This document shows positions 1 to 58,225 of a stretch of DNA of 64,000 nt, one piece after another. The notes beneath the pieces are model-generated. The model made no database searches and was not told the DNA's origin. It worked only from the letters and a program-made list of their open reading frames with translations. Within the stretch, counting starts at the first letter, position 1. Each line of letters opens with the position of its first letter. A program made the position numbers and the translations under genes. The DNA comes from an uncultured Bacteroidales bacterium (lineage in GTDB: Bacteria > Bacteroidota > Bacteroidia > Bacteroidales > UBA932), in contig URDD01000001.1 of NCBI GenBank assembly GCA_900546395.1, positions 9,203 through 73,202 on the forward strand, read 5' to 3'.

Positions 1-235
1 GCAGGAATGAACGTTGCGAAACAGTGTCCTGCTTGTTCATCTTGAACGACAACAACATAGCACCACCTATTCCAAGTGATGCCTCTGGAGTATATGAGGG
101 GCCTCCAAGAATCGAAGCCCATGGTTTGTTCGGATCTCTGGGACGTTTTCGCCTTGCCTGTGTTTCCGGAACGGCAGACAGTACTATTGCTGTCACAGCA
201 AGTACTGTCAATATTCTTTTTTTAAAGTCTGTCAT
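1..235 (-). CDS. Partial gene running off the window edge. Signal-peptide protein, possibly an outer-membrane beta-barrel, with N-terminus MTDFKKRILTVLAVTAIVLSAVPETQARRKRP...SILGGPSYTPEASLGIGGAML. Its ATG overlaps the sulfotransferase stop (ATGA).
   Basis: Reverse-complement reading of bases 1-235 gives an uninterrupted ORF from ATG at 233-235. It has an N-terminal hydrophobic signal-like segment. It is not in the ORF track because no stop codon lies within the window. Confidence 0.45.
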   Translation of the reverse strand, partial: MTDFKKRILTVLAVTAIVLSAVPETQARRKRPRDPNKPWASILGGPSYTPEASLGIGGAMLLSFKMNKQDTVSQRSFL

Positions 236-1332
236 AGGCTGTAGCCCCATTTTTTTAATGCTGCTTCCCAGTTTTCTTCGACAAGCTTTACTGTACGGTC
301 AGAGTAGGAGTATTTGTTTTTTTTGAAGCCTTTGCGTCCGGACAGGTATTTTTCCATTTCAGGACGGGCTTCTTCAAACCCTCCTATCGAAAGTTTTACA
401 TATGTCTCCCGGGTAATGTCAAGAGGTGCTGCCTCAAAGTCTTCAAACTTTATTTCTACAAGCTTTTTTGCAGGAATCAGCCCTTTCTCGCTTTCATAAT
501 TGTCAAACAGTCCTATGTATGTCTCAAGAATGTCTTTTTCCAGCTTTTCATCAGACACGTCCTGAAGTTGAAGGGGCTTGATTGTATTCCTGAAGAAACT
601 TCTGGTAGATTCAAAAACAGTATAAGGATTTCTGACCAAGTATATGAACTTTGCGTCAGGGTACATTTCAAGCAATGTTTTTATGCGTCCTGTGTGAGGA
701 GGATTCTTGCTGAGAAATATATTTTTTCCCTGACAGTGGAGAGATATTTTAATCAGTTTGTCAAGATTGTACTTGAAAGCTTTTCTTTCCTCTTCGCTTA
801 TTTCATTGAAAAGCAGGTATCTTTCTCTGTACAAAGCAGTATTCTCAGGAAAAAACCAGAAGTTGTAGAAAGAGTACGGCATCATATTGACAAGAGCGAA
901 TTCTTCTTCCTGTGGAAGATCAACAGCAAGTTCCAGAGAGTCTGTAGGCCTTCTGGATGGCATGAAAAAAGACATGCACGATTTGAAAAAACCTGATCCG
1001 GAGAGCATAAGGTGAGGAAATACTGTCTGATAGGTAGTGCAGTATCCGAACCTTCTGTCGCAGGAAAAGACATTGTGCATGAATGTAGTACCACTCCTCC
1101 AGTGACCAAGAATGAATACAGGTGCCTGCATCTTGATTTCAGGAAGGCTTTTCCACTTTTTCTCGTTTATGTTGAAAAAAGGATTCAGAATAGCCTGAAT
1201 GCATTTTGTCGTGTTCAGTTTGCCTTTATACTGTCTGTCTATTACAGCTTTTTCGCATAGCGCCTTGAATGTATCCTTGTCCGCCCCTACCAAAGTATTG
1301 ACGGGCAAGGATTCGAATTTCAGTATTCCCAT
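232..1332 (-). CDS. PAPS-dependent sulfotransferase of the cytosolic SULT-like fold
   Basis: Carries a 5'-PSB-like motif GHWRSGTTFMHNV and a 3'-PB-like motif FIYLVRNPYTVFES. It lies immediately downstream of cysN, with 1 nt between the two genes. Confidence 0.75.
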   Translation of the reverse strand: MGILKFESLPVNTLVGADKDTFKALCEKAVIDRQYKGKLNTTKCIQAILNPFFNINEKKWKSLPEIKMQAPVFILGHWRSGTTFMHNVFSCDRRFGYCTTYQTVFPHLMLSGSGFFKSCMSFFMPSRRPTDSLELAVDLPQEEEFALVNMMPYSFYNFWFFPENTALYRERYLLFNEISEEERKAFKYNLDKLIKISLHCQGKNIFLSKNPPHTGRIKTLLEMYPDAKFIYLVRNPYTVFESTRSFFRNTIKPLQLQDVSDEKLEKDILETYIGLFDNYESEKGLIPAKKLVEIKFEDFEAAPLDITRETYVKLSIGGFEEARPEMEKYLSGRKGFKKNKYSYSDRTVKLVEENWEAALKKWGYSL

Positions 1333-1333
1333 A

Positions 1334-2764
1334 TTATTTTATGCATTTTACATTGATGCCGCTCTGTCTGAGATATTCGCATACTTTTTCGATGGCTTCG
1401 GTATGTTCTTCTCCAATTCCTAAATCTTTCAGATTTATTTCAAAAGTTCCTTCATCTTCATTTGAGGCATCGTCGTCAGGGCCTATAATCATTCCTACAG
1501 CTGAAGTAAAGTTTGTTACAGGATCTATAATAATGAAAGACCCTGTAGCTCTGTTTGTTCTGTAGCAGTCATACATAAGAGGACTCGATGATGTCATGGA
1601 TACAAGACCGACTTCATTAAGGAAAAGTCTGTCTGCGTTAAGATGTTCCATTGAGTTTACATCTACCCTGTAGTCTATTTTCCCTATATGGACTCTTGAA
1701 GTGTTTGTTGTCTGCTTGAGAAAGAAAGCCTTGTTCTTATCCATTTTCTCTTCATCCATCCATACAAGCATTGCCTTGAAATTATGTCCTGTGTAAGGCA
1801 GATTGTCGGGCTTTACCAGCATTTCACCTCTGGACAGGTCTATTTCATCTTCCAGGGTGATGGTTACACACTGTGGTGCGAATGCATATTCAAGCTCTCC
1901 GTCATATGTTACAATACTTTTGACTTTTGATTTCTTGCCAGAAGGCAGTGCCATAACTTCGTCACCTTTTCTTATGATTCCGGAAGAGATTTTACCGCTG
2001 AAACCGCGGAAATCAAGGTTCGGACGCAATACGTATTGAACAGGGAATCTGAAGTCTGTCATATTGATATCCTGGTCGATGCTGACATTTTCAAGGAATT
2101 CCATAAGTGAAGGACCTTTGTACCATGGGGTACGGCTGCTTTTTTCAACAACATTGTCTCCGTCCAGTGCAGACAGCGGAATGCACTGCAGGTCAGGTAT
2201 ATGCAATTCGTCAGCTATCTTGCGGTATTCTCCAGTGATTTCTTCAAATCGCTCCTTAGAGAAATCTACCAGATCCATTTTGTTTATTGCAAGCACTATG
2301 TGTCTGATTCCCAAAAGAGAGACCAGGTATGTGTGCCTTCTGGTCTGTGTCACTATACCGTTTCTTGCATCAACAAGAATAATGGCCAGATTTGCAGTCG
2401 AGCCTCCTGTAATCATGTTACGAGTGTACTGCTCATGTCCGGGAGTATCTGCTATAATGAATTTTCTCTTGTTCGTTGAGAAATAACGGTATGCTACATC
2501 TATGGTGATTCCCTGCTCTCTTTCTGCTTTCAGTCCGTCAAGCAGCAGAGCATAGTCAATGTGGTCACCTGCATTTCCCATACGCTTGCTGTCTCTTTCC
2601 AGGGACTGTAACTGATCATCATATAGTTTTTTGCTGTCGAAAAGAAGTCGTCCTATAAGAGTTGACTTTCCGTCATCTACAGAACCGGCTGTAAGCAGGC
2701 GCAGCAAGTCTTTTTTTTCATCCTGCTCAAGATATTCTTCTATGCTGAGTTTCATTGTCTTCAT
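1334..2764 (-). CDS. cysN: Sulfate adenylyltransferase subunit 1 (GTPase CysN)
   Basis: GTPase motifs [23 protein letters not shown] and NKMD. Length 476 aa, with no fused APS-kinase domain. Confidence 0.9.
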
Positions 2765-2781
2765 TGCTTTGAGTTCATTTT

Positions 2782-3693
2782 CTAGAAATAACCTTCTCTT
2801 TTCTTTTGCTCCATGCTACCTTCCTGGTCGAAGTCAATGACTCTGGTAGTACGTTCGCTTTTTGTTGTAAGCATTGTTTCTTCAACAATCTTTTCAATAG
2901 TGTCAGCTTCACTTTCTACAGCACCTGTCAGAGGCCAGCATCCAAGCGTTCTGAATCTTATTTTTTTCATTTGGATCTGATCCCTGTATTTTGCAGGGAG
3001 TCTGTCATCGTCTGCCATAATAAGGTTTCCGTCAATTTCCACTACGGGACGTTCTTTTGCGAAGTACAGAGGCACAATCGGGATGTTTTCATGTCTTATA
3101 TACTGCCAGATATCCAGTTCTGTCCAGTTGCTGAGCGGAAATACCCTTATGCTTTCACCTTCGCGGATCCTGGTGTTGTAGATATCCCAAAGTTCGGGAC
3201 GCTGGTTCTTTGGGTCCCATTGCTGGAATTCGTTTCTGAAAGAAAAAATCCTTTCTTTTGCACGGCTCTTTTCTTCGTCACGTCTGGCTCCGCCGAATGC
3301 TGCATCAAATTTGTACTTTTTCAGAGCGGCAAGCAGTGCTTGTGTCTTCATCAGGTCAGTATGTACCTTGCTTCCGTGGGTAAATGGACCGACACCAGCT
3401 TCAAAGGCTTCTTTGTTATATTCTACAAGTAGATCCCAGCCGTGATCCTTTGCGTACTTGTCACGGAACTCGATCATTTCCTTGAACTTCCATTTTGAAT
3501 CAATGTGCATCAGAGGGAAAGGTACTTTTCCCGGATAGAAAGCTTTTTCAGCAAGTCTTACCATAACGGAGGAATCTTTTCCTATCGAATATAGCATAAC
3601 AGGATTGCGGAATTCAGCTGCTACTTCCCTGATTATATGGATAGACTCGGCTTCCAGAGCCTTAAGATGGCTCAAACTGTAATTTTCTTCCAT
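2782..3693 (-). CDS. cysD: Sulfate adenylyltransferase subunit 2 (CysD)
   Basis: PAPS-reductase-like PP-loop SIGKDSSVM. Length 303 aa, and located between cysN and cysC. Confidence 0.85.
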
Positions 3694-3704
3694 GTTATAT
3701 GTTT

Positions 3705-4310
3705 TTAATAATTATCTTTTATACGCGGCATTGCAACACGCATTATTTCTCTGACACTTTCCTCAAGGCTGAGTTTTCCTGTGTCAATGCTTGTATCCGG
3801 GGCAAGTGGCTCTTCAAAAGGAGCGGATATTCCAGTGAAGTTTTTGATTTCGCCTTTTCTTGCCTTTGCGTACAGTCCTTTTACATCCCGTCTTTCGCAC
3901 TCTTCCAGTGAAGTAGATACGTATATTTCCATAAAATCGTCTTTCCCGATTATGTTGCGGGCCATTTCCCGAAGTTCCCTTGTCGGACTTATAAAGGTCG
4001 CGAGAGTAACTATTCCTGTTTGGGTGAACAGTTTGCACACTTCAGCAATTCGTCTGATATTTTCTACTCTGTCTTCAGCGGAAAAACCTAAATCTGAGTT
4101 CAAGGCAGAACGTACATTGTCTCCGTCAATTATCCTGCAAAGTATTCCTGCAGAGGACAACTCCCTTTCCAGAGCGATAGCGACAGTACTTTTACCTGAG
4201 CCGGACAGTCCGGTAAACCAAAGAGTAAGTCCTTTCTGTCCAAGGAATTCTTCTTTTTCAGAACGGGACTGCATTTTTGAGAATATAGGATAGATATGTT
4301 CCATAGTCAT
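3705..4310 (-). CDS. cysC: Adenylylsulfate (APS) kinase
   Basis: P-loop GLSGSGKST. Length 201 aa. Confidence 0.9.
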
Positions 4311-4311
4311 T

Positions 4312-5874
4312 TTAAAATTTCCAGAATACCGGTATGAGAATCATTGACAATATAAATGCAATAATATTCAGCGGTAATCCGATTCTTGTAAAATCCCTGA
4401 ATTTATAATTTCCGATACCTTGCGCTATCATATTTGTCTGGTAGCCTATCGGTGAGGAAAAACTTGCAGATGCAGCGATGCAGATAGCTATAAAAAAAGG
4501 CATTGGGTTGACATTCAGCTGGGTCGCTGTAGATAATGCGACTGGAAACGCAAAAGCGGCAGCTGCATTGTTGGTTATCAGTTCAGTTATTACATTTGTT
4601 GTAATATATAAAGCAGCGAGGGCAATATGCGGAGATACGTTTCCTCCAGCCAATGCTGTAAGTTTTTCTGCAATAAAGTCAGCTAGGCCTGAATTTGTCA
4701 TAGCCTTGCTTATCGCAAGAGCGCTTGCAATGGTTATGAGTATGTCCCAGGATATGAATTTTGTATATTTCTTGGCAGGAAAGAGATTGAGGGCTGCCAT
4801 TATAACAGTTATGATGCACGCCCAGAAAAACATGTCCATGTTCACAGACGGCAAAAGTGCTCTGATTTTAGGCATTTGACCGAATGTCGCACCGACAATC
4901 ATAAGTGTGAGAAGTCCCAAAGCTGCCCATTTCTTCCATTTGGCGCTTGGGATTTTGTGCGGCTTGCCATTGCTGAGCATAAGGAACTCACTTGATTCTC
5001 CCCAGCTCGTAAAGAAAGAGTCCGGGGCGTCCAATATCAAGGTATCTCCTTCCTTGAATTCTACTGAATTCAGGTCTGAGAGACTTTCTCCTTTTCTTCG
5101 TAGTTCAATTATTCTTGCACCGTATCTTTTTTCGAAATTAAAGTTTGCATACGGAGTGTTGATTCCCCGGAACCTAGGGCCAAGTACCGCTTCTACACGT
5201 AACCTGCCGTTGCTTGACGCAGCCATTTCAGCAGGTGTCTTGTCAGATGGAAGCAGTTTGTTGCCAAGCAGTATAATATATAATATTCCGGTTACGGCTA
5301 TGAATATTCCGACTTTACCAACTTCAAACATACTGAGTCCATTCAGCCCTGCGTCAAGCATCATGCCGTGTACTACCAGATTAGTGGACGTTCCTATAAG
5401 AGTGCACATTCCTCCCAGTATTGCAGAAAAAGAAAGAGGAATCAGGAATTTTTTGACAGGCTGACCGATCTTCGCCGCCCATTCTTTTATAATCGGCACG
5501 AAAATAACTACCAGAGGTGTGTTGTTGAGGAAAGCGGATATTGCAGCTACTGTAGGCATCATACGTATATATCCGTTTTTTATTCCATTTCCGTTTTTTG
5601 CTTTTTTTCCCGGAAGTATTTTGCCTATGACATGACCGAGGGCATCACTTCTTCGTACTCCTTCGCTTACCAGGAAAAGCAGTGCTACTGTAATCATTCC
5701 TTTATTGCTGAATCCGGACAGGAGTTCTTCAGGAGTAAGTATGCCTGTACACATGAACAGTATAGCTACAGACATCATAATGAGCCCCGGCCGCATTACA
5801 TCTGCAACCAGAAGAGCAAGCATTGTAATCAGGGATATAAGTACAATTACGATTTCAACATTCATTATGGTCAC
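4312..5874 (-). CDS. SLC13/DASS-family anion permease with a central TrkA-C (RCK_C) domain. Probable sulfate or PAPS-related transporter.
   Basis: Polytopic hydrophobic protein of 520 aa, with a soluble central segment (EFKEGDTLILDAPDS...) typical of TrkA-C inserts in bacterial SLC13 permeases. It is the first gene of the cys/sulfotransferase operon. Confidence 0.65.
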   Translation of the reverse strand: MTIMNVEIVIVLISLITMLALLVADVMRPGLIMMSVAILFMCTGILTPEELLSGFSNKGMITVALLFLVSEGVRRSDALGHVIGKILPGKKAKNGNGIKNGYIRMMPTVAAISAFLNNTPLVVIFVPIIKEWAAKIGQPVKKFLIPLSFSAILGGMCTLIGTSTNLVVHGMMLDAGLNGLSMFEVGKVGIFIAVTGILYIILLGNKLLPSDKTPAEMAASSNGRLRVEAVLGPRFRGINTPYANFNFEKRYGARIIELRRKGESLSDLNSVEFKEGDTLILDAPDSFFTSWGESSEFLMLSNGKPHKIPSAKWKKWAALGLLTLMIVGATFGQMPKIRALLPSVNMDMFFWACIITVIMAALNLFPAKKYTKFISWDILITIASALAISKAMTNSGLADFIAEKLTALAGGNVSPHIALAALYITTNVITELITNNAAAAFAFPVALSTATQLNVNPMPFFIAICIAASASFSSPIGYQTNMIAQGIGNYKFRDFTRIGLPLNIIAFILSMILIPVFWKF

Positions 5875-6119
5875 ATTATATGTGAGAAAACAGGTTGCTG
5901 TCCGACAGTCTTTCCAAAGGTCGGAATCATATTGGAATTAAAGAACAAATCAATAATCGTGCAAATTACCCTTTCGTCAAGGTATATTATTTGTCAAAAA
6001 ATCGCTATTTGTATCCTCTTTTTCTCCAAAAAGCCAGTAACCAAAGAAAATACAATCATGGGAACGTCAATTGATAGAGGTCCGGTCAAACTTATACCTG
6101 GTATTGATTTATTCTGCGT

Positions 6120-6132
6120 TTTTTGTATCTTT
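6120..6132 (+). promoter_or_regulatory. Candidate Bacteroidetes sigma-A promoter -7 box (TAnnTTTG within TTTTGTATCTTTG) upstream of ftsY
   Basis: TATCTTTG at 6125-6132, 24 nt upstream of the ATG at 6156. The identical 13-mer precedes tRNA-Leu at 19789-19801. Confidence 0.35.
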
Positions 6133-6155
6133 GTGGGGTTAAACTGGTATATATT

Positions 6156-7097
6156 ATGGGTATATTTGACAAGGGAGTTCAGAAGACCAAACGCAGTTTC
6201 TTTGAAAAAATTTCAAGGGCTATTGTCGGCAAATCTAAGGTGGATGACAATTTGCTTGATGCCATTGAGGAAGCTCTGGTAGCGTCAGATATGGGCGTTG
6301 ACACGACCTTGAAGATAATTGACAATCTTGAAGAACGTGTGCACAGAGACAAGTATGTGTCTTTTGACGAACTTCTTGATATGCTCAGGGATGAGATACG
6401 CAAGCTTTTGGATATTACTGATGAAGATTCAGCCTACAGCGGAGAGATTCCATTTGATTTTTCCCAAAAGCCGTATGTAATTATGGTTGTAGGGGTTAAT
6501 GGTGTCGGTAAAACTACTACAATCGGAAAGCTTGCAGCCCTTCTTAAGTCGCGTGGCAAGAAAGTCGTTCTCGGGGCAGCCGACACGTTCAGGGCTGCGG
6601 CTGTAGATCAGCTGACTATATGGGCAGAACGTGCAGGCGTCGATATAGTTAAACAGGAGATGGGGTCAGATCCGGCTTCTGTGGCATATGATACGGTCTC
6701 TTCGGCTGTTGCCAAAGGCGCTGATGTTGTACTTATAGACACAGCGGGACGCCTTCATAACAGAATTGACCTTATGAATGAACTTACAAAGATAAGGAAT
6801 GTCATGAGAAAGGTGATTCCTGATGCTCCAAATGAGGTACTTCTGGTTCTTGACGGTTCTACAGGGCAGAATGCCTATCAGCAGGCGAAGGAGTTCTCAA
6901 AGGCTACGGATGTAACCTCCCTTGCGGTTACAAAACTTGATGGAACGGCGAAAGGAGGCGTGGTTATCGGTATTACTGACCAGTTTAAGGTACCTGTTAA
7001 ATTCGTCGGAATAGGGGAAGGAATTGATGACTTGAAAGTCTTTGATAAGAAAGAGTTTGTAGAGTCCCTGTTCTCTAAGGAAGATTTCAAGTCCTGA
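6156..7097 (+). CDS. ftsY: Signal recognition particle receptor FtsY
   Basis: Motifs GVNGVGKTTTIGKLA and DTAGRLH. Start taken at MGIFDKG, 33 nt downstream of the track ORF start. Confidence 0.9.
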   Translation: MGIFDKGVQKTKRSFFEKISRAIVGKSKVDDNLLDAIEEALVASDMGVDTTLKIIDNLEERVHRDKYVSFDELLDMLRDEIRKLLDITDEDSAYSGEIPFDFSQKPYVIMVVGVNGVGKTTTIGKLAALLKSRGKKVVLGAADTFRAAAVDQLTIWAERAGVDIVKQEMGSDPASVAYDTVSSAVAKGADVVLIDTAGRLHNRIDLMNELTKIRNVMRKVIPDAPNEVLLVLDGSTGQNAYQQAKEFSKATDVTSLAVTKLDGTAKGGVVIGITDQFKVPVKFVGIGEGIDDLKVFDKKEFVESLFSKEDFKS

Positions 7098-7161
7098 GTG
7101 TCATAGAGGCGAGGGTGTCCTGGTTCGTATAAATGGAAATGAAAAATAATAAATATTTAAA

Positions 7162-9651
7162 ATGACGATATCTTATAATTGGCTCAAGGATTATCTTGAG
7201 TGCGATCTCACTGCAGAGCAGGTGGCCGAGGCTCTTACCTCCATCGGTCTTGAGGTCGATTCTCTGGAGCAGATTGAAGAAATTCCCGGCGGACTTGCCG
7301 GAGTCATAGTGGCAGAAGTCGTGGAATGTGTAGAGCATCCTGATTCGGACCATCTTCATATTACGAAGTTGAATACAGGAGAGCCTGAACTGCTTCAGGT
7401 CGTATGCGGAGCTCCGAATGTTGCCGCCGGGCAGAAAGTACTGTTGGCCACAGTCGGAACGAAGTTGGGCGAAGATTTCAAAATAAAGAAATCGAAGATC
7501 AGGGGTGTAGAGTCCTTCGGTATGATTTGCGCCGAGGATGAACTCGGAATAGGCGAGTCTCATGACGGTATAATGGTGCTTGACCAGTCTGCAATACCGG
7601 GAACACCTGCAAAGGACTATCTGCATCTGGCTACAGACTATGTCATAGAAATAGGACTTACCGCCAACAGGGTCGATGCAGCATCGCATATTGGTGTTGC
7701 CAGAGATTTGTATGCCTATCTTAGACTCAATAATATTCCTTGTCGTCTGATGATTCCTGATGTAACTTCATTTAAGGAGGGAACAGAAGGAATGTGTTCA
7801 GAAACGGGTGACCTTAACGGTGCTATTCCTGTGGAGGTATGTGCCCTGGATGGCGCTCCTAGATATTTGGGCATTACAATAAAAGGAGTCAAGGTGGCGC
7901 CTTCTCCGGAATGGTTGCAGAAAAAGCTGCTGTCCATAGGCTTGAAACCTATTAATAATATAGTAGATATAACAAACTTCGTGCAGATGGAAACAGGACA
8001 TCCTCTGCATGCTTTCGATGCCGCTGAAATAGGAGGACGTAAGGTCGTTGTGCGTAGGGCTGCTGAAGGAGAGAAGTTTGTAACTCTTGACGGAATTGAG
8101 AGGACATTGTCGTCAGAAGATCTTATGATAGCAGACATTGAAAAGCCTATGTGTCTTTCAGGTGTCTTCGGAGGTGCCGTTTCCGGAGTAAAGGAAAGTA
8201 CCGCCGATATCTTTCTTGAAAGTGCCTATTTCAATCCGGTATCTATCAGAAAGTCATCCAAGAGACACGGCCTTAAGACAGATGCATCCTTCAGAAATGA
8301 AAGAGGTGCTGATCCGCTCATTCCTGAATATGCCGCCAAGCGTGCTGCCCTTCTTATAGAGGAACTGGCAGGAGGAAAGGTCGTTGGAAAAGTACAGGAG
8401 GTTTATCCTGAAAAGATAGAAAAGAAGGTCGTAGAACTTGATTACGACAGAATAGAGGCTTTTATAGGCAAGAAAATAGGACATGATACTATAGAGAAAA
8501 TACTTGGATTTCTTGCATATGACTTCCTTGAAAGGCGTCAGGATGCAGACGGCAATCCTTCCGGATCACGTGTCGCTGTACCGTCTTATATGGTGGATGT
8601 ATATAGGGAATGTGATGTTGTTGAGGAAGTTCTGAGAATTTACGGATATAATAATATCGAACTTCCGTCAGGGATAAGAATGTCCGTGAATGCCACAGCA
8701 AAGCCAGAGGCGGAAACTGTCAGGAATATCGTTTCAGATTTTCTGGCGGCAAACGGTTTTGTCGAAACGATGAACAATTCCCTTACTAAGGAGGATTACT
8801 ATTCGCAACTCACTACCTTCCCTAAGGAAAAATGTGTGCATATTCTCAATCCGTTGAGTTCTGATCTGAATGTTATGAGGCAGACATTGCTTCTGAATGG
8901 TCTTGAAGTGATTTCATACAACCTTAACAGGCAGATTAACTCTCTTAAAATATTCGAATACGGCTCAGTTTACTCTTTTGATCCGAACGGAGATCCTGCG
9001 TTGTTGGATGCGTATAAAGAAAGTACTGCATATGCTTTGTTCATTACCGGTTCTTGCGAGAAGTCATGGTGTGCGGAACTTCACAAGGGCAGTTATTTTC
9101 AGTTGAAAGGATGTCTTGAACTTCTGTTGAAACGTTTCGGAGCTGACATATATTCATTGGAATATGACGCGGCGCCTTCTGACTTGTTCTCCGAAGGTCT
9201 TGTGTATAAATTGCCTGGTACAGCGGAGTCTCTTGCTGTAATGGGAACTGTTGCCAAGGCACGACTTAAGCAGTTTGATATAAAGCAGCCTGTATTTGCA
9301 GCAGAAATTAACTGGCCGGTTTTATTCGAGCTCGTTAAAAGGAATAGGGTCAAATATAGCGAACTTCCAAAATTCCCTGGCGTACGACGTGACCTTGCTC
9401 TCCTTCTGGACGAAAACGTTGAGTATGCCCAGTTGCGCAAGGCTGCATTCAAGGCAGGTAAGAAACTTATAAAGAGTGTGACCTTGTTTGATGTCTATAG
9501 AGGAGACAAGATTCCTGCAGGCAAGAAGCAGTATGCGATGGGGTTTGTTTTGCAAGATGCTGACAAGACATTGACAGACAATGAAGTTGAGAAAGTAATG
9601 TCTAAACTGCTTTCTGTGTTTGCTTCTGAGTTCGGAGCGTCATTGAGGTAG
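7162..9651 (+). CDS. pheT: Phenylalanine--tRNA ligase beta subunit
   Basis: N-terminus MTISYNWLKDYL, 829 aa. The B3/4, B5 and anticodon-binding-like regions are in the expected order. Confidence 0.9.
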   Translation: MTISYNWLKDYLECDLTAEQVAEALTSIGLEVDSLEQIEEIPGGLAGVIVAEVVECVEHPDSDHLHITKLNTGEPELLQVVCGAPNVAAGQKVLLATVGTKLGEDFKIKKSKIRGVESFGMICAEDELGIGESHDGIMVLDQSAIPGTPAKDYLHLATDYVIEIGLTANRVDAASHIGVARDLYAYLRLNNIPCRLMIPDVTSFKEGTEGMCSETGDLNGAIPVEVCALDGAPRYLGITIKGVKVAPSPEWLQKKLLSIGLKPINNIVDITNFVQMETGHPLHAFDAAEIGGRKVVVRRAAEGEKFVTLDGIERTLSSEDLMIADIEKPMCLSGVFGGAVSGVKESTADIFLESAYFNPVSIRKSSKRHGLKTDASFRNERGADPLIPEYAAKRAALLIEELAGGKVVGKVQEVYPEKIEKKVVELDYDRIEAFIGKKIGHDTIEKILGFLAYDFLERRQDADGNPSGSRVAVPSYMVDVYRECDVVEEVLRIYGYNNIELPSGIRMSVNATAKPEAETVRNIVSDFLAANGFVETMNNSLTKEDYYSQLTTFPKEKCVHILNPLSSDLNVMRQTLLLNGLEVISYNLNRQINSLKIFEYGSVYSFDPNGDPALLDAYKESTAYALFITGSCEKSWCAELHKGSYFQLKGCLELLLKRFGADIYSLEYDAAPSDLFSEGLVYKLPGTAESLAVMGTVAKARLKQFDIKQPVFAAEINWPVLFELVKRNRVKYSELPKFPGVRRDLALLLDENVEYAQLRKAAFKAGKKLIKSVTLFDVYRGDKIPAGKKQYAMGFVLQDADKTLTDNEVEKVMSKLLSVFASEFGASLR

Positions 9652-10386: not shown

Positions 10387-11570
10387 ACAGGATAGCAGCT
10401 GAATATTTATATACATTGGAGTCTCCGAATCCGATACGCAACGGTTTTGTTGAATTTGAAGATGACGGGACAATTGTTAGGACAGGAGTTTGCGACAATC
10501 TGGAAAAAGAGAAGAGATTTTATCGGGGGGCCATAGTTCCGGGTTTCATTAACACACATTGTCATATCGAGTTGTCTCATCTTGTCGGAAAATTCCGCAA
10601 AGGGTCTGGAATGGCCGGTTTTATAGACCAGATTAATGCACTGCGCGAGAGTTCTGGAAAAGAAGAGAGGGTGGAATGTATCCGCAAGTGGATGGATATC
10701 CTTTGGAATCAGGGAGTTTCTGCCATGGGAGATATAAGCAATTGTGATGAAAGTTTTTCCGTTAAGGCCATATCACCTTTATATACGAGAACTTTTCTTG
10801 AAGTATTCGGTACGGAGCCACGGGATGTACCTGCTGTAATGGAGTCTGTAAGGGGACTTCAGAAGAGTGCCTCCGGATATGGACTTGATGCGGCTCCTGT
10901 TCCGCATTCCTGCTATACTATGAGCCCTGAACTTCTTACAGCTTCAGCTGCGGATGCTCTAAAATCGGGTTTTCTGTCATATCATTCCCAGGAAAGTCCT
11001 GAAGAGGAAGAAATGATAGCAACAGGAAGCGGAGCTTTGTACGAAAATAGAAAGAAGTTGGGGATGAGTACTCCCCCTGTTACGGGAAGACCATCTCTTA
11101 TGTATTTTATTGATAGACTTAAAGAAGTACATCAGCCTCCTTTTGATGAACATATTTTGCTTGTGCACGAAGTCTGTATGACTGAAGAGGCTGCAGACGC
11201 GGCTAAAGAAGCTATGAATAATCTTTTCATAGCATTGTGTCCGATGTCCAATCTTTTTATTCATAATCAGTTGCCGCCTATTTCAATGATGAGGCGGAAG
11301 GGGTTGAAACTTACCGTAGGTACAGATTCTCTTTCAAGTAACGATACTTTGGATATGGTCAGAGAACTGTACTGCATCCATAAGACCAACCCTGATATAC
11401 AGTTCGGTGAAATCCTTTCCTGGGCTTGCCTCAATGGAGCGGAGTTCCTGGGCAAGTCAGACTTGCTGGGTTCCATTGTACCTGGCAAAAAGCCAGGTCT
11501 GGTTCTGGTTGACAATCTGGATAATGAAGGATGCGTCACTTCAGAAAGCACTTCTTCTAGACTTATTTAA
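10383..11570 (+). CDS. Metal-dependent amidohydrolase superfamily protein (deaminase/chlorohydrolase-like)
   Basis: HxH metal-binding motif PGFINTHCHIELSHL and downstream His/Asp-containing segments. Length 395 aa. Confidence 0.6.
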   Translation: MNRIAAEYLYTLESPNPIRNGFVEFEDDGTIVRTGVCDNLEKEKRFYRGAIVPGFINTHCHIELSHLVGKFRKGSGMAGFIDQINALRESSGKEERVECIRKWMDILWNQGVSAMGDISNCDESFSVKAISPLYTRTFLEVFGTEPRDVPAVMESVRGLQKSASGYGLDAAPVPHSCYTMSPELLTASAADALKSGFLSYHSQESPEEEEMIATGSGALYENRKKLGMSTPPVTGRPSLMYFIDRLKEVHQPPFDEHILLVHEVCMTEEAADAAKEAMNNLFIALCPMSNLFIHNQLPPISMMRRKGLKLTVGTDSLSSNDTLDMVRELYCIHKTNPDIQFGEILSWACLNGAEFLGKSDLLGSIVPGKKPGLVLVDNLDNEGCVTSESTSSRLI

Positions 11571-11579
11571 ATATATTGT

Positions 11580-12338
11580 ATGCTAAGGTTTGAAGATATA
11601 GTTTTCGGTCCGATACACAGCAGGCGGCTGGGCTCTTCATTGGGTGTGAATCTTCTGCCACCTAAAGGGAAGTTGTGTAATTTTGACTGTGTGTATTGTG
11701 AATGCGGATGGAACAGCGACGGAAGAGAAGACTGGAAAATGCCGGATGCATCTGAAGTCAGAGCGGCAATGGAAGAAAAGTTTTCGCAGTTGGCGAATAA
11801 TGGTGTGAAAATTGATTCCATTACATTTTCAGGGAACGGTGAACCTACAATCAATCCTGATTTTCCTGATATTATAGATATTACTCTGGAACTCAGAGAT
11901 AAATATCTGCCAGGAGCTGCAGTTTCAGTATTGTCCAATGCAACTCTTGCTGGACGTAAGGAAATCAGAGAGGCGCTTATGAAAGTAGATAACCCTATTT
12001 TGAAAATAGACGCCCCTACAGATGAAGGAGTTGCAGTAGTGAACAAGCCAGCTTTTCCATATAGTATTGAAGAAACAATAAGTCATTTGTCTGAGTTTGG
12101 AGGGAATTTTGTCCTTCAGACTATGTTTATGAAATGGGAGAGGTCGGATTCTTCGGATTCAGAATGGCTTGCCGGCTGGATGGATATAGTGAGAAGGTTA
12201 AAGCCTCGTGAGATAATGGTCTATACATTGGACAGAGAAGCTCCGCAAAAAGGACTTGAAAAGTTTACAGTCAGTCAGATGACTGATTTTGTCAGACCAC
12301 TGATTGATGAAGGGTATAATATTCAGATAAGAGGATGA
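11580..12338 (+). CDS. Small radical SAM protein
   Basis: CxxxCxxC cluster CNFDCVYCECG near the N-terminus and a glycine-rich GNGEPT motif. Length 252 aa. Its end overlaps the dtd start (ATGA). Confidence 0.65.
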   Translation: MLRFEDIVFGPIHSRRLGSSLGVNLLPPKGKLCNFDCVYCECGWNSDGREDWKMPDASEVRAAMEEKFSQLANNGVKIDSITFSGNGEPTINPDFPDIIDITLELRDKYLPGAAVSVLSNATLAGRKEIREALMKVDNPILKIDAPTDEGVAVVNKPAFPYSIEETISHLSEFGGNFVLQTMFMKWERSDSSDSEWLAGWMDIVRRLKPREIMVYTLDREAPQKGLEKFTVSQMTDFVRPLIDEGYNIQIRG

Positions 12339-13862: not shown

Positions 13863-13870
13863 TACTTTTG
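13863..13870 (+). promoter_or_regulatory. Candidate -7 box TACTTTTG (TAnnTTTG) for the HExxH lipoprotein gene
   Basis: Lies 25 nt upstream of the ATG at 13895 and overlaps the alternative ATG at 13868, which argues for the 13895 start. Confidence 0.3.
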
Positions 13871-13894
13871 TTTTGTAAATTAAAAACAGGAGTT

Positions 13895-15460
13895 ATGGAC
13901 AGATTATTGGGAATGATTCTTATTTTGACGCTGCTTTTTTCTTGTAATAGCAGCGTACTGGAGCCGGATAACGAATTTCCGGACAATGCTCTTGAAGATG
14001 TCGGACATGAGATGATAGTATTGGGGGAAAGGCTGGAAAACCCATATACTACCGAAAATATGACAAAGGCTCTTCAGTCTCTTTATCCTACAAAATCGCG
14101 TGTGGAGCTGTCTCCTACTCATCTGTATGTGAGATTTCTTCCGTTGGAAGAGTCTGATTTTGATTTATTGGACGGTCTTGATTTGTCAGACCATCCGTTG
14201 GATTATAAGATTGTCCGCGATGGTGACTATTATCACGATCCTTCTATAGATGATGATGACGCCACTTGGCAATATGCTGTCGTTCCGCATGATTATGTGT
14301 TTCCAGATGTTTATTATGAACTTATAGATGAGTGCTTCATTAAGGAAACTGGCGGCGTCCCAAGACGTTCCGGAGACATAGACTGGGATGCTGTGGAACG
14401 TGAGTCATACAGGATTACAGGCAATGGGGAAGTAGTGGAGCCGCTTACTAAATCCGGGAAAGTCAATCCTTCCGGAATGATTACAATTTTAGATGAAAAG
14501 GTCAATGGAGGAAAACCTTTCGGACTCTCGGGAGTGCGTATAAGATGCAACAGTTTTGTTAAGTTCTCACATACCTATACTGACAGGGACGGATATTATA
14601 CCATACCTAAAAAGTACTCGTCCAATGTCAGATATCGTATTGTTTTCAAAAATGAGAAAGGATTTGCCATCGGATTTAACAAGCTTCTGGTACCGGCTTC
14701 CACAGCGGCATTGGGACGTCATTCCCCTGAAGGACTTAATTATACTGTAACAGAAAGGTCAGAGCGCAAGCTGTTTACCAGAAGTGTCGTTAACAATGCT
14801 GCATACGATTATATATCAAGATGTTCTTCGGAGGATATGTCTATCACCTTGCCTCCTGACGATTTAAGAATCTGGCTTTTTCAAGGAATGACTGCCAGCA
14901 GTGCGGTTATGCTTCATCATGGAGCAGTAGTTGACAGCAAGGATATAAGTAAGTTTTTAGGAGGCTTTTCAACAGTACTTAGATTTTTTGCTCCTGATTT
15001 GACCCTGGGGATGAAGAATAAGACTGAATATAGTGAAATATACAGCGACGTATGTCATGAGATGGCACATGCCAGTCATTTTGCTCAGGTCGGAACAGAC
15101 TATTGGAACAGATATATAAAATTTATAATAAAAGCATTTGTGTCATCAGGAGGAAATACTTACGGTAACGGAAATGAAACGGATGCCGGCTATTGCGCAG
15201 TCGGTGAAATGTGGGCATACTATCTTGAAAGCCTTATGTATAAGGAGCGCTATGGAGGAAATGTACCGTCATTCGGCAACTCTTTTTGGTTTTCCCCTCA
15301 GATTTTCAGGGCTTTGGATCAGAGAGGTATTAAAAGATCTGACATACTCTTGGCACTTGCGCCGGATGTCTCTGATGTACGTATATTGAGGACGAGGCTA
15401 CTTGCTATGTTTCCGGCAAAAACCGGCATAATCAATCAGGTCTTTAACAGATACAGATAG
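13895..15460 (+). CDS. Putative zinc metallopeptidase lipoprotein with an HExxH motif
   Basis: Lipoprotein signal MDRLLGMILILTLLFSC and the motif VCHEMAHASHF around residue 390. Family not assignable without a search. Confidence 0.5.
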   Translation: MDRLLGMILILTLLFSCNSSVLEPDNEFPDNALEDVGHEMIVLGERLENPYTTENMTKALQSLYPTKSRVELSPTHLYVRFLPLEESDFDLLDGLDLSDHPLDYKIVRDGDYYHDPSIDDDDATWQYAVVPHDYVFPDVYYELIDECFIKETGGVPRRSGDIDWDAVERESYRITGNGEVVEPLTKSGKVNPSGMITILDEKVNGGKPFGLSGVRIRCNSFVKFSHTYTDRDGYYTIPKKYSSNVRYRIVFKNEKGFAIGFNKLLVPASTAALGRHSPEGLNYTVTERSERKLFTRSVVNNAAYDYISRCSSEDMSITLPPDDLRIWLFQGMTASSAVMLHHGAVVDSKDISKFLGGFSTVLRFFAPDLTLGMKNKTEYSEIYSDVCHEMAHASHFAQVGTDYWNRYIKFIIKAFVSSGGNTYGNGNETDAGYCAVGEMWAYYLESLMYKERYGGNVPSFGNSFWFSPQIFRALDQRGIKRSDILLALAPDVSDVRILRTRLLAMFPAKTGIINQVFNRYR

Positions 15461-15505
15461 ACTATGATATTTTAAAAAGGAAGAAGAGAATGATAAGGAG
15501 ATAAT

Positions 15506-16069
15506 ATGGATTGGCGATATATAGGTGTATTCTTGGTGGCGATGCTCCTCGATGGTGGATTTGTTTATGGGCAGAAAATGTCGGTATCTTCAAACCTTGC
15601 AGGATATGCTGCATTGGGAACATTGAATGCTGAATTTGCGTATTCAGTTTCAAGGCACTGGAGTTTGCAGGTAGGGGCAGAATACAATCCCTGGACATTC
15701 AGGAAAGGTATTGCAGGAAAGCAATTCCAGATGAGACGGCAGAGTTATTCGACTTCAGCTAAATACTGGTTCTGGCATTTCGGTTCAGGATGGTGGATAG
15801 AGGGGAAGATTCAGTATCAGGAGTATAATGAGGGAGGTTTGATGAGGAGAAGGACAGAGGAGGGAGACAGGTTCGGTTTAGGGTTTGCCGCAGGATATAC
15901 CTATATGTTGCATCCTAATATAAACATAGATTTCGGTTTGGGATTCTGGGGCGGTTATGCAAAGTATGTGCAGTTCAGATGTCCGTCTTGTGGATTGATG
16001 GAAAGGAAAGGAAATAAAGCATTCATTTTACCGGATGATATTTTAATAGCAATTACATATGTGTTCTGA
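15506..16069 (+). CDS. DUF3575-family small outer-membrane beta-barrel protein (pilus-locus associated)
   Basis: Signal peptide, alternating aromatic/Gly beta-strand pattern (GLGFAAGYTYML, FGLGFWGGYAKY), 187 aa. Confidence 0.55.
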   Translation: MDWRYIGVFLVAMLLDGGFVYGQKMSVSSNLAGYAALGTLNAEFAYSVSRHWSLQVGAEYNPWTFRKGIAGKQFQMRRQSYSTSAKYWFWHFGSGWWIEGKIQYQEYNEGGLMRRRTEEGDRFGLGFAAGYTYMLHPNINIDFGLGFWGGYAKYVQFRCPSCGLMERKGNKAFILPDDILIAITYVF

Positions 16070-17921
16070 TAGAAATATACCTTGTTTGTTTGCATTGCTT
16101 TCCTTAATGATATTATGCTCTTGCTCAGTGTCAAGACGGATTTCCGAGTTAAGAGATTCCGGAAAAAATGTTGTTCTGTCGCTGCCCTCTGATGAAGAGG
16201 AAGAAGATACGGCAAAAACGGATTCAGCAGAATACTTATCGGCTGGAAAATCCGTGATTATGAATGCCGTCTTGGATTCAATTACAGGAGATATGGTAGC
16301 ATCAGATGTAATACGGGCATCTAAAATTACTGCGAGATTCCGGCACGCGGCGGAAAGAAATGGCAAGATTTCTCTTGCCTTTGATGTATCTGTACCTTCT
16401 GAAATGCTGGAATCGTCATGGCGGCTGCGTCTGTTTCCGGTAATGGATATTCTCGGAGACTCACTTTGTCTTGAACCATTGTTTGTTACGGGAGCCGGAT
16501 ACAGGTCCGCTCAGGAGAAAGGCTATCAGAGATACAAGGCTTTTCTGTCATCTATTATAAAGGACAGTACTGACTTCCTTATGTTGCATTCTTTGGAAAT
16601 GTTCATTCAAAGGTACTTTCCGGATACTTATTCAATGAAGACAGATTCTTCATATGTTTCAGCGAAAGAGGAGGAAAATATTTTTGGGGTTTGCAGGAAA
16701 GAAGTGGTGGAACATTATACTAGACAGGGACTTATAAGAAGAAATGAACGAAAGAAAAAGATATCGGAGAAAATGTTGTCAAAAGTAATAGCACCTGTTA
16801 ATAGCAAGGTGAGGCTTGATACAGTTATATGTTCTTCTTCCGGGGAATTGGTTTACAGGTATGTCCAGACTATAGAAAGCCGGCCAGGTCTTAAAAAGAT
16901 ACCAGTAACGGTATCAGGAGGTATTTATGAACTTGGAAGGCAATTATATTCATTTCCTGAACCTGAAAATATAGTTTTTTACATTAGTTCTCTTTCAACC
17001 TTGGCAGATACTGCATCCAAATATGTGCTCAAAGTCATTGAACGTAATGTTTATGAAGACAAGAACGCTGTCATTGATTTCAGTCAGGGTTCGTCTCAGA
17101 TTGATTTGTCACTTGGCAGCAATGAAGAGGAATTCAGTTCAGTCAAGGATTGGGCAGGGAAAATACTATCCAGTGAGAAATATGTGACTGATTCTATAGT
17201 TGTTACAGCTTCGTGTTCTCCTGAAGGTAGATATAGTTTTAACGAATTGCTGTCAAGGTCCAGGGCAGAGGCAGCAATGCTTTTTTTCTCAAATTATTTT
17301 CCTGATATGGATAAACAGGTTTTCAAGGCATCGTATATACCTGAAAATTGGAGCAGACTGAAGAAGATGGTAATTTCAGACAACTATATGTCCCAGGCTT
17401 CGAAAAACACAATATTGTCGTTTGATGCAGTAAAGAGTCCGGATGGCTCAGAAACGAAATTGAAATCTCTTCCGGAGTATGAGTATATAAAGGAATCTCT
17501 CTATCCGGGTTTGAGAAATGTAAAGTTCGGGATATTTATGCATAGGAAGGGTATGCAGAAAGATACTGTACATACGGCTGAAATAGATTCTACTTATATG
17601 GAAGGCATTAAAGCTCTTACATCACTCGATTATAGGAAGGCTGTAGGGCTGCTCGGGAAATATGAAGATTATAATTCTGCATTAGCTTATCTTTCAGCTG
17701 GTTATGATGAAAAGGCCTGGAAGGTAATATCAAAAGTACGGGGTCATACACCAAAATTGGATTATTTGGCAGCACTGGCTTTGTCCAGACTTGGAAAAAT
17801 AGAAAAGGCATATAGGTATTTCAAATATTGCGTTGAGGCAGATCCTTCCATGCTTCACAGAGGAAGACTTGACCCGGAAATGAATGAAGTAGTTGAACAA
17901 TACGAAAATGAAAGATATTGA
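16059..17921 (+). CDS. DUF3868-like protein with a C-terminal TPR-like region
   Basis: Signal/lipobox LCSCS, 620 aa. Its position between the DUF3575 and fimbrillin genes matches Bacteroidales pilus loci. Confidence 0.4.
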   Translation: MCSDRNIPCLFALLSLMILCSCSVSRRISELRDSGKNVVLSLPSDEEEEDTAKTDSAEYLSAGKSVIMNAVLDSITGDMVASDVIRASKITARFRHAAERNGKISLAFDVSVPSEMLESSWRLRLFPVMDILGDSLCLEPLFVTGAGYRSAQEKGYQRYKAFLSSIIKDSTDFLMLHSLEMFIQRYFPDTYSMKTDSSYVSAKEEENIFGVCRKEVVEHYTRQGLIRRNERKKKISEKMLSKVIAPVNSKVRLDTVICSSSGELVYRYVQTIESRPGLKKIPVTVSGGIYELGRQLYSFPEPENIVFYISSLSTLADTASKYVLKVIERNVYEDKNAVIDFSQGSSQIDLSLGSNEEEFSSVKDWAGKILSSEKYVTDSIVVTASCSPEGRYSFNELLSRSRAEAAMLFFSNYFPDMDKQVFKASYIPENWSRLKKMVISDNYMSQASKNTILSFDAVKSPDGSETKLKSLPEYEYIKESLYPGLRNVKFGIFMHRKGMQKDTVHTAEIDSTYMEGIKALTSLDYRKAVGLLGKYEDYNSALAYLSAGYDEKAWKVISKVRGHTPKLDYLAALALSRLGKIEKAYRYFKYCVEADPSMLHRGRLDPEMNEVVEQYENERY

Positions 17922-17945
17922 TGTATAACTCAAATTTTATCGCTT

Positions 17946-18923: not shown

Positions 18924-18974
18924 GCAGTAAGCATGTCTGTGTTATGATACATGGATATTCTGTCCTGAATTGAG

Positions 18975-21055: not shown

Positions 21056-21343
21056 TTAGTTCCTTTTTTCCTTTACCCTTACCAACTTGTCTTTAAGGAT
21101 GTCGACGCAGTCAACAAGTGCATCTTCAAAAGTCTTGGCGTTACGCTCTATGACAACGTCATTTCCGGGAATCTGAACGTGAATTTTCACGTTTTTGTTT
21201 TCGTGTTCGGCGAGTAGCGAGAGAGCTACATCGACACCGATGATTTCGTCATAAAACTTTTCAAGTTTTGACACTTTTTTCTCTACGAAGTCAAGCAGCT
21301 TCTGGTCTGCGTTAAACTTGATGGATTGTACTCTAATCTCCAT
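21056..21343 (-). CDS. hpf: Ribosome hibernation promoting factor
   Basis: MEIRVQSIKFNADQKLLDFVEKKVSKLEKF...; 95 aa from the MEIRV start. Confidence 0.85.
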   Translation of the reverse strand: MEIRVQSIKFNADQKLLDFVEKKVSKLEKFYDEIIGVDVALSLLAEHENKNVKIHVQIPGNDVVIERNAKTFEDALVDCVDILKDKLVRVKEKRN

Positions 21344-35768: not shown

Positions 35769-35775
35769 ATAGACG

Positions 35776-36762: not shown

Positions 36763-36780
36763 CTGCAGGAGGAAGATGAT

Positions 36781-37782: not shown

Positions 37783-37815
37783 AATATTTATCATTGATAT
37801 CGGGGGTTTTGAAAA

Positions 37816-38559: not shown

Positions 38560-38563
38560 TATT

Positions 38564-53625: not shown

Positions 53626-53628
53626 AAA

Positions 53629-58201: not shown

Positions 58202-58225
58202 TTGAATTTTCTCCTTTTTGAATGT

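Follow-up and report, generated by a model that had tools for sequence, protein, structure and literature searches.

At the left edge of the window, our term for the whole 64-kb stretch of DNA analyzed here, genes for the synthesis of PAPS stand next to a gene for a PAPS-dependent sulfotransferase. This raises the question of what the PAPS is spent on and, if it is spent on sulfotransfer, which acceptor receives the sulfonate. Bacterial steroid sulfonation shifts host cholesterol and cholesterol-sulfate pools (PMC9417993), and bile-acid derivatives are reported to act differently on the immune system once sulfonated (PMC13449962). We conclude that this locus, from an uncultured relative of Candidatus Cryptobacteroides within the Bacteroidales, is probably orthologous to BT0412-BT0416, the cluster with which Bacteroides sulfonates cholesterol and other steroids. 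The Bacteroides cluster is already known and widespread, and the present locus is a new copy of it from an uncultured gut Bacteroidales member; the picture of how the sulfonation system works is left unchanged by it.

A packed operon with a recurrent gene order

Five consecutive open reading frames on the minus strand (5874..4312, 4310..3705, 3693..2782, 2764..1334 and 1332..232 in the ORF listing) encode a permease, CysC, CysD, CysN and a sulfotransferase. An initial annotation had described these five packed genes, and the ORF map and HMM searches confirm their identity and arrangement. It had also put every gap at 12 nt or less. The gaps measured from the permease to the sulfotransferase are 1, 11, 17 and 1 nt, and the 17 nt between cysD and cysN exceed that bound. 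The sulfotransferase gene begins 1 nt past the cysN stop codon, and the adjacency of these two genes is kept in most sampled lineages. To place the arrangement in a wider setting, we sampled sulfotransferase (SULT) genes from genomes and metagenomes and clustered them at 90% identity into 25 lineages, 18 of which keep the order permease-cysC-cysD-cysN-SULT. Since the same gene order recurs in these lineages, the packing is not due to chance.

A scan revealed no terminator-like site in the gaps separating the operon genes, and we infer that the genes are co-transcribed. Upstream of the permease, a 257-nt intergenic region (5866..6122) reaches to the divergently transcribed ftsY and is presumed to be the promoter region of the operon. 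The sole TAnnTTTG motif in this region lies 229 nt upstream of the permease ATG. Counts from the sigma-70 promoter/terminator scan were near shuffle expectation, the sigma-70 model being uninformative for Bacteroidota, and an Rfam search of window positions 1-7000 returned no match, neither a riboswitch nor a leader.

Presumed sulfate uptake and PAPS synthesis

The permease gene (4312..5865, minus strand), a homolog of BT0412, encodes an anion permease of the CitMHS/DASS type in the ion-transporter superfamily, as identified from Pfam, NCBIfam and alignment. It matches Pfam CitMHS (E 3e-59), Na_sulph_symp (E 5e-20) and TIGR00785 DASS (E 1e-30). The reading frame yields 520 aa from a GTG at 5874 and 517 aa from an ATG at 5865; the ATG is favored by the public gene call (517 aa) and by the alignment to the B. 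thetaiotaomicron-type permease, which begins at Met4 of the longer ORF, and the protein probably starts at 5865. Its earlier description as an SLC13/TrkA-C permease stands for the anion permease part; TrkA_C is matched only below threshold, at 18 bits (E 0.0026) where the gathering score is 27. We infer that the protein is a sulfate importer.

The cysC gene (3705..4310, minus strand) encodes an adenylyl-sulfate (APS) kinase of 201 aa (PF01583, E 1.5e-63; NF003013, 240.6 bits against a cutoff of 163). The two subunits of sulfate adenylyltransferase follow, the small subunit of 303 aa from cysD (2782..3693, minus strand; NF009214 equivalog, 500.7 bits against a cutoff of 413) and the GTPase subunit of 476 aa from cysN (1334..2764, minus strand; NF003478 equivalog, 704.6 bits against a cutoff of 590). 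The 303-aa protein also matches the PAPS_reduct Pfam family and was considered as a candidate CysH. This assignment was rejected, as CysH models score 35-50 bits against cutoffs of at least 154 and the CysD equivalog model passes.

CysD, CysN and CysC from the window are equivalogs of the enterobacterial assimilatory enzymes. In contrast to the enterobacterial cysDNC/cysH/cysJI genes, the window operon contains neither a PAPS reductase nor a sulfite reductase gene, and a sulfotransferase replaces the reductive branch. We found no cysH, cysI/J or sir in about 74 kb of annotated ORFs and called genes, made up of the window, toward whose end (around 59156-61384) the annotation came from Pfam, and 10 kb past its left edge; the earlier observation that cysH and cysIJ are not adjacent thus extends over this whole range. 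As the operon comes without a gene for a PAPS or sulfite reductase, its PAPS would be used for sulfotransfer and not for cysteine synthesis.

The sulfotransferase belongs to the Sulfotransfer_3 family

The last of the five genes (232..1332, minus strand) encodes a PAPS-dependent sulfotransferase of 366 aa, a homolog of BT0416/BtSULT in the Sulfotransfer_3 family (PF13469, E 3e-32), in which no signal peptide was found. Its loops GHWRSGTT (residues 76-83) and RNPYTVFES (residues 234-242) align with the corresponding loops of Stf1 and Stf9, and we read them as the putative PAPS-binding 5'-PSB and 3'-PB loops. Most residues of both loops are invariant among 37 homologs, including H77-T83, R234 and S242.

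We further characterized the relatedness to other sulfotransferases via the AF2 model of the protein (pLDDT 89). In Foldseek searches the nearest solved folds are the mycobacterial enzymes Stf9 (PDB 2z6v) and Stf1 (PDB 2zq5), with E values of ~1e-10 and TMq of 0.64-0.72, followed by TPSTs. By sequence, the best match in the PDB has an E value of 6e-9. Sequence alignment reveals a 5'-PSB-like loop GxxR[ST]GTT, a KNP.H motif and the 3'-PB region to be common to Stf1, Stf9 and the window enzyme. However, the mycobacterial proteins are only 15-16% identical to it and differ in genomic context and presumed acceptors, and they are not orthologs. The mammalian cytosolic enzymes SULT2B1b and SULT2A1 (Sulfotransfer_1) share the overall fold class and the expected chemistry, PAPS-dependent sterol 3-O-sulfonation, but SULT2A1 structures reach a TMq of only 0.33-0.36 at 11-13% identity. 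The Sulfotransfer_1 model (PF00685) scores 21.8 bits on the window enzyme, just under its gathering score of 22. The enzyme would be a functional analog of mammalian steroid SULTs and is not a member of their family. The term "SULT-fold" used in the initial annotation is to be taken in the sense of the Sulfotransfer_3/mycobacterial Stf-like branch, and not in that of the mammalian cytosolic SULT family.

Comparison with the Bacteroides thetaiotaomicron cluster

BtSULT, the product of BT0416, is reportedly also the subject of a paper by Yao et al. from 2022, cited in PMC13449962. Heterologous expression, an in vitro assay and a knockout have shown that BT0416 sulfonates cholesterol with PAPS as the donor (Le et al. 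2022, PMC9417993), and the PAPS genes BT0411-BT0415 adjoin it (PMC9417993). It is reported to take DHEA, pregnenolone, calcifediol and isoalloLCA as well (PMC13449962). For B. thetaiotaomicron, Sat and APS kinase have been reported, but no enzymes that would process PAPS or APS onward (PMC11610557).

To obtain a reference locus, we searched with the gene-specific parts of the published cloning primers for BT0416 (PMC9417993, Supplementary Table 1). Two loci, L001 and L002, contain perfect matches to the primers, which delimit a 368-aa gene whose protein is 99% identical to that of a third locus, L006, from a MAG labeled B. thetaiotaomicron. These loci stand in for B. thetaiotaomicron VPI-5482, which is absent from the ten genome matches to a 26-nt primer fragment. 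The gene order of this proxy locus is cysQ-permease-cysC-cysD-cysN-SULT. Together with the literature, it verifies what the initial annotation had stated, namely the BT0412-BT0416 gene order and the link to steroid sulfonation.

Alignment of the window sulfotransferase to the BT0416 proxy gave 60% identity and 76% positives (residues 1-366 against 1-368, E 7e-154), with unrelated sulfotransferase-fold enzymes far more distant. The neighboring genes are collinear, with identities to their proxy counterparts of 59% for the permease (full length, 517 aa), 69% for CysC (against the L001 protein in the BT0413 position), 88% for CysD and 71% for CysN. Thus, the window locus and the BT0412-BT0416 cluster share an identically arranged, co-directional set of five genes that ends in a Sulfotransfer_3 enzyme of ~367 aa. 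The loops read as PAPS-binding are kept, and in both cases no reductive sulfate-assimilation genes lie alongside. The hosts differ, as the window locus comes from an uncultured Cryptobacteroides-like Bacteroidales bacterium.

The two ends of the cluster are more variable. The loci of Bacteroides, Parabacteroides and Coprobacter have cysQ, the PAP phosphatase gene equivalent to BT0411, whereas the window locus has ftsY upstream instead. A tblastn search with L001 CysQ (E <= 1e-3) against the window and the source scaffold (L011) found no cysQ, neither in the 64 kb nor in the adjoining 10 kb. Adjacent cysQ is also missing in several other lineages (L014, L019, L020 and L025), so it looks like an accessory rather than a core feature of the cluster. 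On the 3' side of the sulfotransferase gene, Bacteroides, Parabacteroides and Coprobacter have a gene for a PCMD-domain protein, and the window locus has one for a POTRA-less Omp85-type barrel. A literature search for BT0417, the downstream PCMD gene, returned no relevant paper on its role. The comparison shows that the core of the cluster is permease-cysC-cysD-cysN-SULT and that cysQ, PCMD and the Omp85-type barrel are variable accessories. The same core order now extends into uncultured Cryptobacteroides-like Bacteroidales. This division into core and accessories aids the annotation of metagenomes and the choice of divergent enzymes for studies of substrate scope.

The window enzyme falls in a sister clade of BT0416

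We calculated a distance-based NJ tree from 27 representative sulfotransferases, midpoint-rooted and without outgroup or support values, in which the window enzyme groups with those of five other loci (L014, L018, L019, L025 and L067) as sister to the BT0416 clade. With a Ca. Cryptobacteroides avicola-type protein it shares 72% identity, while identities between the two clades are 51-61%. No characterized enzyme is among the sequences sampled from its clade.

The same residue is present in at least 95% of the sequences of both clades at 102 of the 366 positions. Outside the loops read as PAPS-binding, the motifs RPTD, LPQEEEFAL and NMMPY are kept in both. Only 12 positions discriminate between the clades (for example D126S, N132S and G203K), all of them outside these loops, and the changes are mostly conservative (I/V, F/Y, K/R and T/S).

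An Omp85-type barrel gene overlaps the sulfotransferase gene

A sixth co-directional gene is cut by the left edge of the window, which contains its first 78 codons (1..235, minus strand). Its ATG overlaps the sulfotransferase stop codon in an ATGA at window position 235 (junction CTATGACAG). The complete gene, at 11098-12249 of the source scaffold L011, encodes a POTRA-less Omp85-type outer-membrane barrel of 383 aa that matches PF01103 (E 4e-10) and NF047779 Omp85_fam. The N-terminus resembles a signal peptide, and the C-terminus reads ...NMTEAF. The AF2 model (pLDDT 76) has ~16 strands, with the barrels of TamA and BamA as best fold matches. We considered the barrel as an exclusive partner of the sulfotransferase and rejected this, as two homologs of 61-62% identity stand alone and have neither cys nor SULT genes closer than 9 kb. 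The one plus-strand terminator-like site from the scan falls within the barrel gene.

Proposed pathway and alternative readings

In the pathway that we propose, the CitMHS/DASS permease would bring in sulfate, which CysD/CysN, acting as a GTP-driven ATP sulfurylase, would convert to APS. CysC would phosphorylate APS to PAPS, from which the cytoplasmic Sulfotransfer_3 enzyme would transfer the sulfonate to a hydroxyl acceptor. Orthology with BtSULT makes cholesterol-like steroids whose A/B rings are flat the most probable acceptors, through their 3-OH. The specificity could differ from that of BT0416 because of the 60% identity and the placement in a sister clade.

Could the operon instead belong to ordinary sulfate assimilation? 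A PAPS reductase encoded elsewhere would then lead to cysteine synthesis, and the sulfotransferase would be an unrelated neighbor. CysD, CysN and CysC are canonical assimilatory enzymes, and the inspected part of the genome amounts to about 74 kb. We nevertheless consider this reading very improbable, given the lack of cysH, cysI/J and sir in the window and the 10 kb beyond, the start of the sulfotransferase gene 1 nt past the cysN stop in a widely kept adjacency, and the reported lack of enzymes for further PAPS or APS use in B. thetaiotaomicron (PMC11610557). A reading in which APS or PAPS is mainly released to feed sulfite-respiring neighbors, with sulfotransfer as a side activity, seems barely credible to us. 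Such cross-feeding has been hypothesized for B. thetaiotaomicron and Bilophila (PMC11610557), but it is still hypothetical even for B. thetaiotaomicron. No nucleotide exporter is evident, and the conserved, translationally packed sulfotransferase gene argues for sulfotransfer as the selected function.

If sulfotransfer is what the PAPS serves, the sister clade might still use the same machinery on another acceptor, which would not be a host steroid. Candidates are endogenous lipids or glycolipids of the envelope, hydroxy fatty acids and other small molecules from the diet or the host, with the barrel serving the substrate or product. The window enzyme does lie outside the BT0416 clade at 60% identity, 12 positions including D126S, N132S and G203K discriminate the clades, and the accessory genes differ (Omp85-type barrel versus PCMD, with cysQ missing). 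Recent literature also emphasizes how little is known about the range of substrates that SULTs of gut bacteria accept, and ErSULT, another Sulfotransfer_3 enzyme, sulfonates hydroxy fatty acids (PMC13449962). However, the synteny with the characterized cluster is strict, and the 102 positions conserved at 95% or more in both clades include RPTD, LPQEEEFAL and NMMPY. Furthermore, the discriminating changes are mostly conservative, and the stand-alone homologs of the barrel (61-62% identity) indicate that it is not specific to SULT loci. We regard this reading as unlikely, albeit with appreciable weight, and favor a cluster orthologous to BT0412-BT0416 that acts on steroids. It is doubtful that the cluster of the sister clade recruited the translationally coupled barrel as a dedicated outer-membrane component, for import of the hydrophobic acceptor or export of the sulfated product through that membrane, or else that the clade sulfonates a different, new acceptor. 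If either reading is true, bacterial sulfonation would gain a so far uncharacterized step in the envelope or a new class of substrates. With regard to a coupled barrel, other loci have a PCMD-domain secreted protein in its place, or both.

Organization of the proposed sulfotransferase operon

Five successive minus-strand ORFs extend from 5874 down to 232. They encode a CitMHS/Na_sulph_symp (DASS-type) permease (5874..4312) and the APS kinase CysC (4310..3705), both assigned by curated HMMs, followed by CysD (3693..2782; 500.7 bits, equivalog cutoff 413), CysN (2764..1334; 704.6 bits, cutoff 590) and a 366-aa Sulfotransfer_3 protein (1332..232; E 3e-32), referred to here as the window SULT. The initial annotation had described five packed genes with gaps of 12 nt or less. 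Read directly, the junctions measure 1, 11, 17 and 1 nt in gene order, so the five genes and three of the gaps hold but cysD-cysN is wider. Antisense ORFs listed across the operon were discarded as spurious. The PAPS_reduct Pfam match of CysD does not denote a reductase, because CysH models reach just 35-50 bits. For the permease, the ATG at 5865 is the most probable start, giving 517 aa; both the public gene call and the alignment with its Bacteroides counterpart point to this codon. The initial annotation had called it an SLC13/TrkA-C protein. Its central loop (residues about 243-280) gives just a sub-threshold TrkA_C (RCK_C) match, with E 0.0026 and a score of 18 bits where the gathering score is 27, and is possibly a degenerate regulatory domain.

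An ENA metagenome scaffold (PETE17-1_SAMN04329779 scaffold_91, 114 kb; locus L011) carries the exact window SULT sequence and supplies 10 kb past the left edge of the window. It completes a sixth co-directional gene, encoding an Omp85-type barrel of 383 aa (minus strand, 11098-12249 in L011), of which 78 codons lie inside the window (1-235). The gene starts at 235, its ATG overlapping the SULT TGA (ATGA). The protein has a signal-peptide-like N-terminus, ends in ...NMTEAF and matches Pfam Omp85 and NCBIfam Omp85_fam. The AF2 model (pLDDT 76) lacks a POTRA domain, has about 16 strands and most resembles the TamA and BamA barrels in structure comparisons. On its 3' side in L011 lie an opposite-strand hypothetical gene and then ribosomal protein genes, infC and thrS, whilst divergent ftsY and pheT lie upstream of the permease. 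The nearest named SULT relatives are from Candidatus Cryptobacteroides excrementipullorum and Ca. C. avicola (cluster representatives 72% and 71% identical), from which we judge the host to be an uncultured Bacteroidales bacterium of the Candidatus Cryptobacteroides neighbourhood.

Relationship to the B. thetaiotaomicron cholesterol sulfotransferase

Le et al. 2022 (PMC9417993) demonstrated conversion of cholesterol into cholesterol sulfate by BT_0416 (BtSULT) expressed in E. coli, by the enzyme supplied with PAPS in vitro, and by B. thetaiotaomicron itself, which loses this activity when the gene is knocked out. The adjoining Bt_0411-Bt_0415 are putative PAPS genes, with BT_0412 the proposed sulfate importer, and identical clusters occur in B. 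ovatus and B. fragilis (PMC9417993). The cluster in a B. dorei study comprises a PAP dephosphorylase, a Na+/sulfate symporter, APS kinase, sulfate adenylyltransferase and the cholesterol sulfotransferase. In a 2026 publication, the group behind the name BtSULT assigns the enzyme to Pfam Sulfotransfer_3 and gives its scope as steroids with flat A/B rings, among them cholesterol, DHEA, calcifediol, pregnenolone and isoalloLCA (PMC13449962).

We located a BT0416 proxy through the gene-specific parts of the cloning primers (Le et al., Supplementary Table 1). These translate to MGLLEFNKLPINTL and ...DFALKQWNYNL*, and the window SULT has similar termini, MGILKFESLPVNTL and ...EAALKKWGYSL. A 26-nt primer fragment retrieved ten Bacteroides loci from the species-representative genome collection. 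Both full primers match loci L001 and L002 exactly, bounding a 368-aa gene, and the SULT of a MAG labelled B. thetaiotaomicron (L006) is 99% identical to this protein. The order in L001 is cysQ-like (274 aa, Inositol_P), permease (517), cysC (201), cysD (302), cysN (487) and SULT (368). The window proteins are collinear with this proxy and align across their full lengths, with identities of 59% for the permease, 69% for CysC, 88% for CysD, 71% for CysN and 60% for the SULT (76% positives, E 7e-154). This bears out the match in gene order to BT0412-BT0416 given in the initial annotation. The window locus differs from the B. thetaiotaomicron-type cluster in having no adjacent cysQ, and in having the barrel 3' of the SULT where Bacteroides has a PCMD gene.

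Structure and motifs of the window SULT

The best sequence matches among solved structures are mycobacterial Stf1 and Stf9 (E 6e-9 and 4e-4), so the window SULT clearly aligns better to the BT0416 proxy than to unrelated SULT-fold enzymes, the comparison that the initial annotation had set as a refutation test. Its AF2 model is confident (pLDDT 89). In Foldseek comparisons Stf1 and Stf9 show 15-16% identity and TMq 0.64-0.72, followed by tyrosylprotein sulfotransferases, whereas human steroid SULT2A1 entries reach a TMq of only 0.33-0.36. GHWRSGTT (76-83) aligns with the GLVRTGTT (Stf1) and GMPRTGTT (Stf9) loops, KNPPH (209-213) corresponds in the alignment to KNPSH/KMPSH, and RNPYTVFES (234-242) to the Arg-containing stretch that comes next. 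From the general features of the fold, we take these segments to be the PAPS-binding loops, which contact the 5'-phosphosulfate and the 3'-phosphate. The loop residues are mostly invariant in 37 homologues, including H77-T83, K209-T214, R234 and S242, as are RPTD (128-131) and PQEEEFAL (140-147). The window SULT has no signal peptide, as would suit a PAPS-using enzyme of the cytoplasm.

Conservation of the cluster and its accessory genes

A protein search with the window SULT returned 3109 homologous clusters. A metagenome scan gave at least 600 matching stretches; 580 of those listed encode a relative and 80 were kept. All cluster proteins were searched by tblastn over 102 loci, whose SULTs form 25 lineages at 90% identity. 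Eighteen of the 25 sampled lineages keep the order permease-cysC-cysD-cysN-SULT, and two (L018, L067) have cysC-PCMD-SULT. In one (L033-L035) cysD is followed by the SULT about 600 nt on and cysN was not detected, one (L037) lacks the permease, and the contig of another (L053) is too short to judge. No cys genes were detected upstream of the SULT within the 3-7 kb of sequence present in L031 and the L040 lineage (including L047 and L048). The SULTs of L033-L035, L031, L040, L047 and L048 are 56-58% identical to the window protein and 79-82% to the BT0416 proxy.

The cluster begins with cysQ in Bacteroides, Parabacteroides and Coprobacter, where the gene directly 3' of the SULT, at the BT0417 position, is a PCMD gene (L012 10135-11088; L016 10125-11081; L006 5886-6857). 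It encodes a conserved PCMD-domain protein (PF13201) of about 318 aa with a hydrophobic N-terminus; a literature search found no paper mentioning BT0417. The window, two Cryptobacteroides-like loci (L014/L015) and L019 have the barrel 3' of the SULT and no cysQ. L018 carries PCMD (6992-7984) 5' of the SULT and the barrel 3' of it; in L014/L015, L018 and L019 the barrel gene is arranged relative to the SULT as in the window. In L067, as in L018, PCMD sits between cysC and the SULT. In L039/43/46/57 cysQ is preceded by a barrel gene whose stop overlaps the cysQ start; the encoded barrel is 35-37% identical and shares the C-terminal FNMTEAF. The association is recurrent but not exclusive, because two homologues 61-62% identical (L103, L104) are stand-alone genes in unrelated contexts. 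Known since 2022, this system is widespread among gut Bacteroidales; the window locus adds an uncultured lineage with variant accessories. Our literature search found no mention of linkage between the cluster and cell-envelope proteins (Omp85-type barrel, PCMD), and this recurrent linkage is the sole feature that might be new.

Proposed function and alternative readings

From established family roles and the characterised Bacteroides cluster, sulfate would be imported and activated to APS and then PAPS, which the last enzyme would use for O-sulfonation. We hold with high confidence that the locus is a BtSULT-type dedicated PAPS-plus-sulfotransferase operon. A plain assimilatory sulfate-activation operon is very improbable: public gene calls with Pfam labels and our own Pfam scan, covering the window except for a few short stretches plus 10 kb to its left (roughly 74 kb), revealed housekeeping genes, a fimbrial cluster, a Bat/MoxR operon and a SusC/SusD locus, but no PAPS/APS reductase or sulfite reductase gene. 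The initial annotation had noted no such gene adjacent to the operon, and this now extends past the left edge. B. thetaiotaomicron itself is reported to encode Sat and APS kinase without enzymes for onward PAPS/APS use (PMC11610557).

The main rival to a steroid acceptor is a different acceptor in the clade of the window SULT. A neighbour-joining tree of 27 representative SULTs has two clades, one with the BT0416 proxy, Parabacteroides and Coprobacter (67-99% identical to the proxy) and a sister with the window, Cryptobacteroides-type, L019, L025, L018 and L067 sequences; identity between the clades is 51-61%. Across 183 aligned sequences, 102 positions show one residue shared by at least 95% of the members of each clade, and just 12 positions discriminate the clades, mostly by conservative changes. 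We read the window SULT as orthologous to the BT0416-clade enzymes, with a probable, though unproven, conservation of acceptor class. We lean towards cholesterol-like steroids as the acceptor and regard another acceptor as rather unlikely; the combined reading, a BtSULT-type operon acting on cholesterol-like steroids, is likely.

Other loci in the window

An envelope or fimbrial gene cluster (13868-19772, plus strand) encodes a DUF3575 protein and gives a weak match to P_gingi_FimA; for several of its members Pfam returned nothing. A phage-integrase-family (tyrosine recombinase) gene (21333-22421, minus strand) lies 1 nt from a CCA-adding/poly(A) polymerase family gene. A Bat/MoxR-type operon (32836-41224, plus strand) encodes a MoxR AAA ATPase, DUF58 and VWA-domain proteins, a TPR protein and an 886-aa BatD. 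Finally, the minus strand carries a polysaccharide-utilisation-type locus at 49068-63873. Its genes encode a SusC-like TonB-dependent receptor at 59156-61384, a SusD-like protein at 56576-58201, a GLAA-B beta-barrel/beta-helix protein at 53629-55476 and a 1003-aa BD-FAE/carboxylesterase protein at 50614-53625, together with a PKD-domain protein and a response-regulator/AraC protein reaching the window end.
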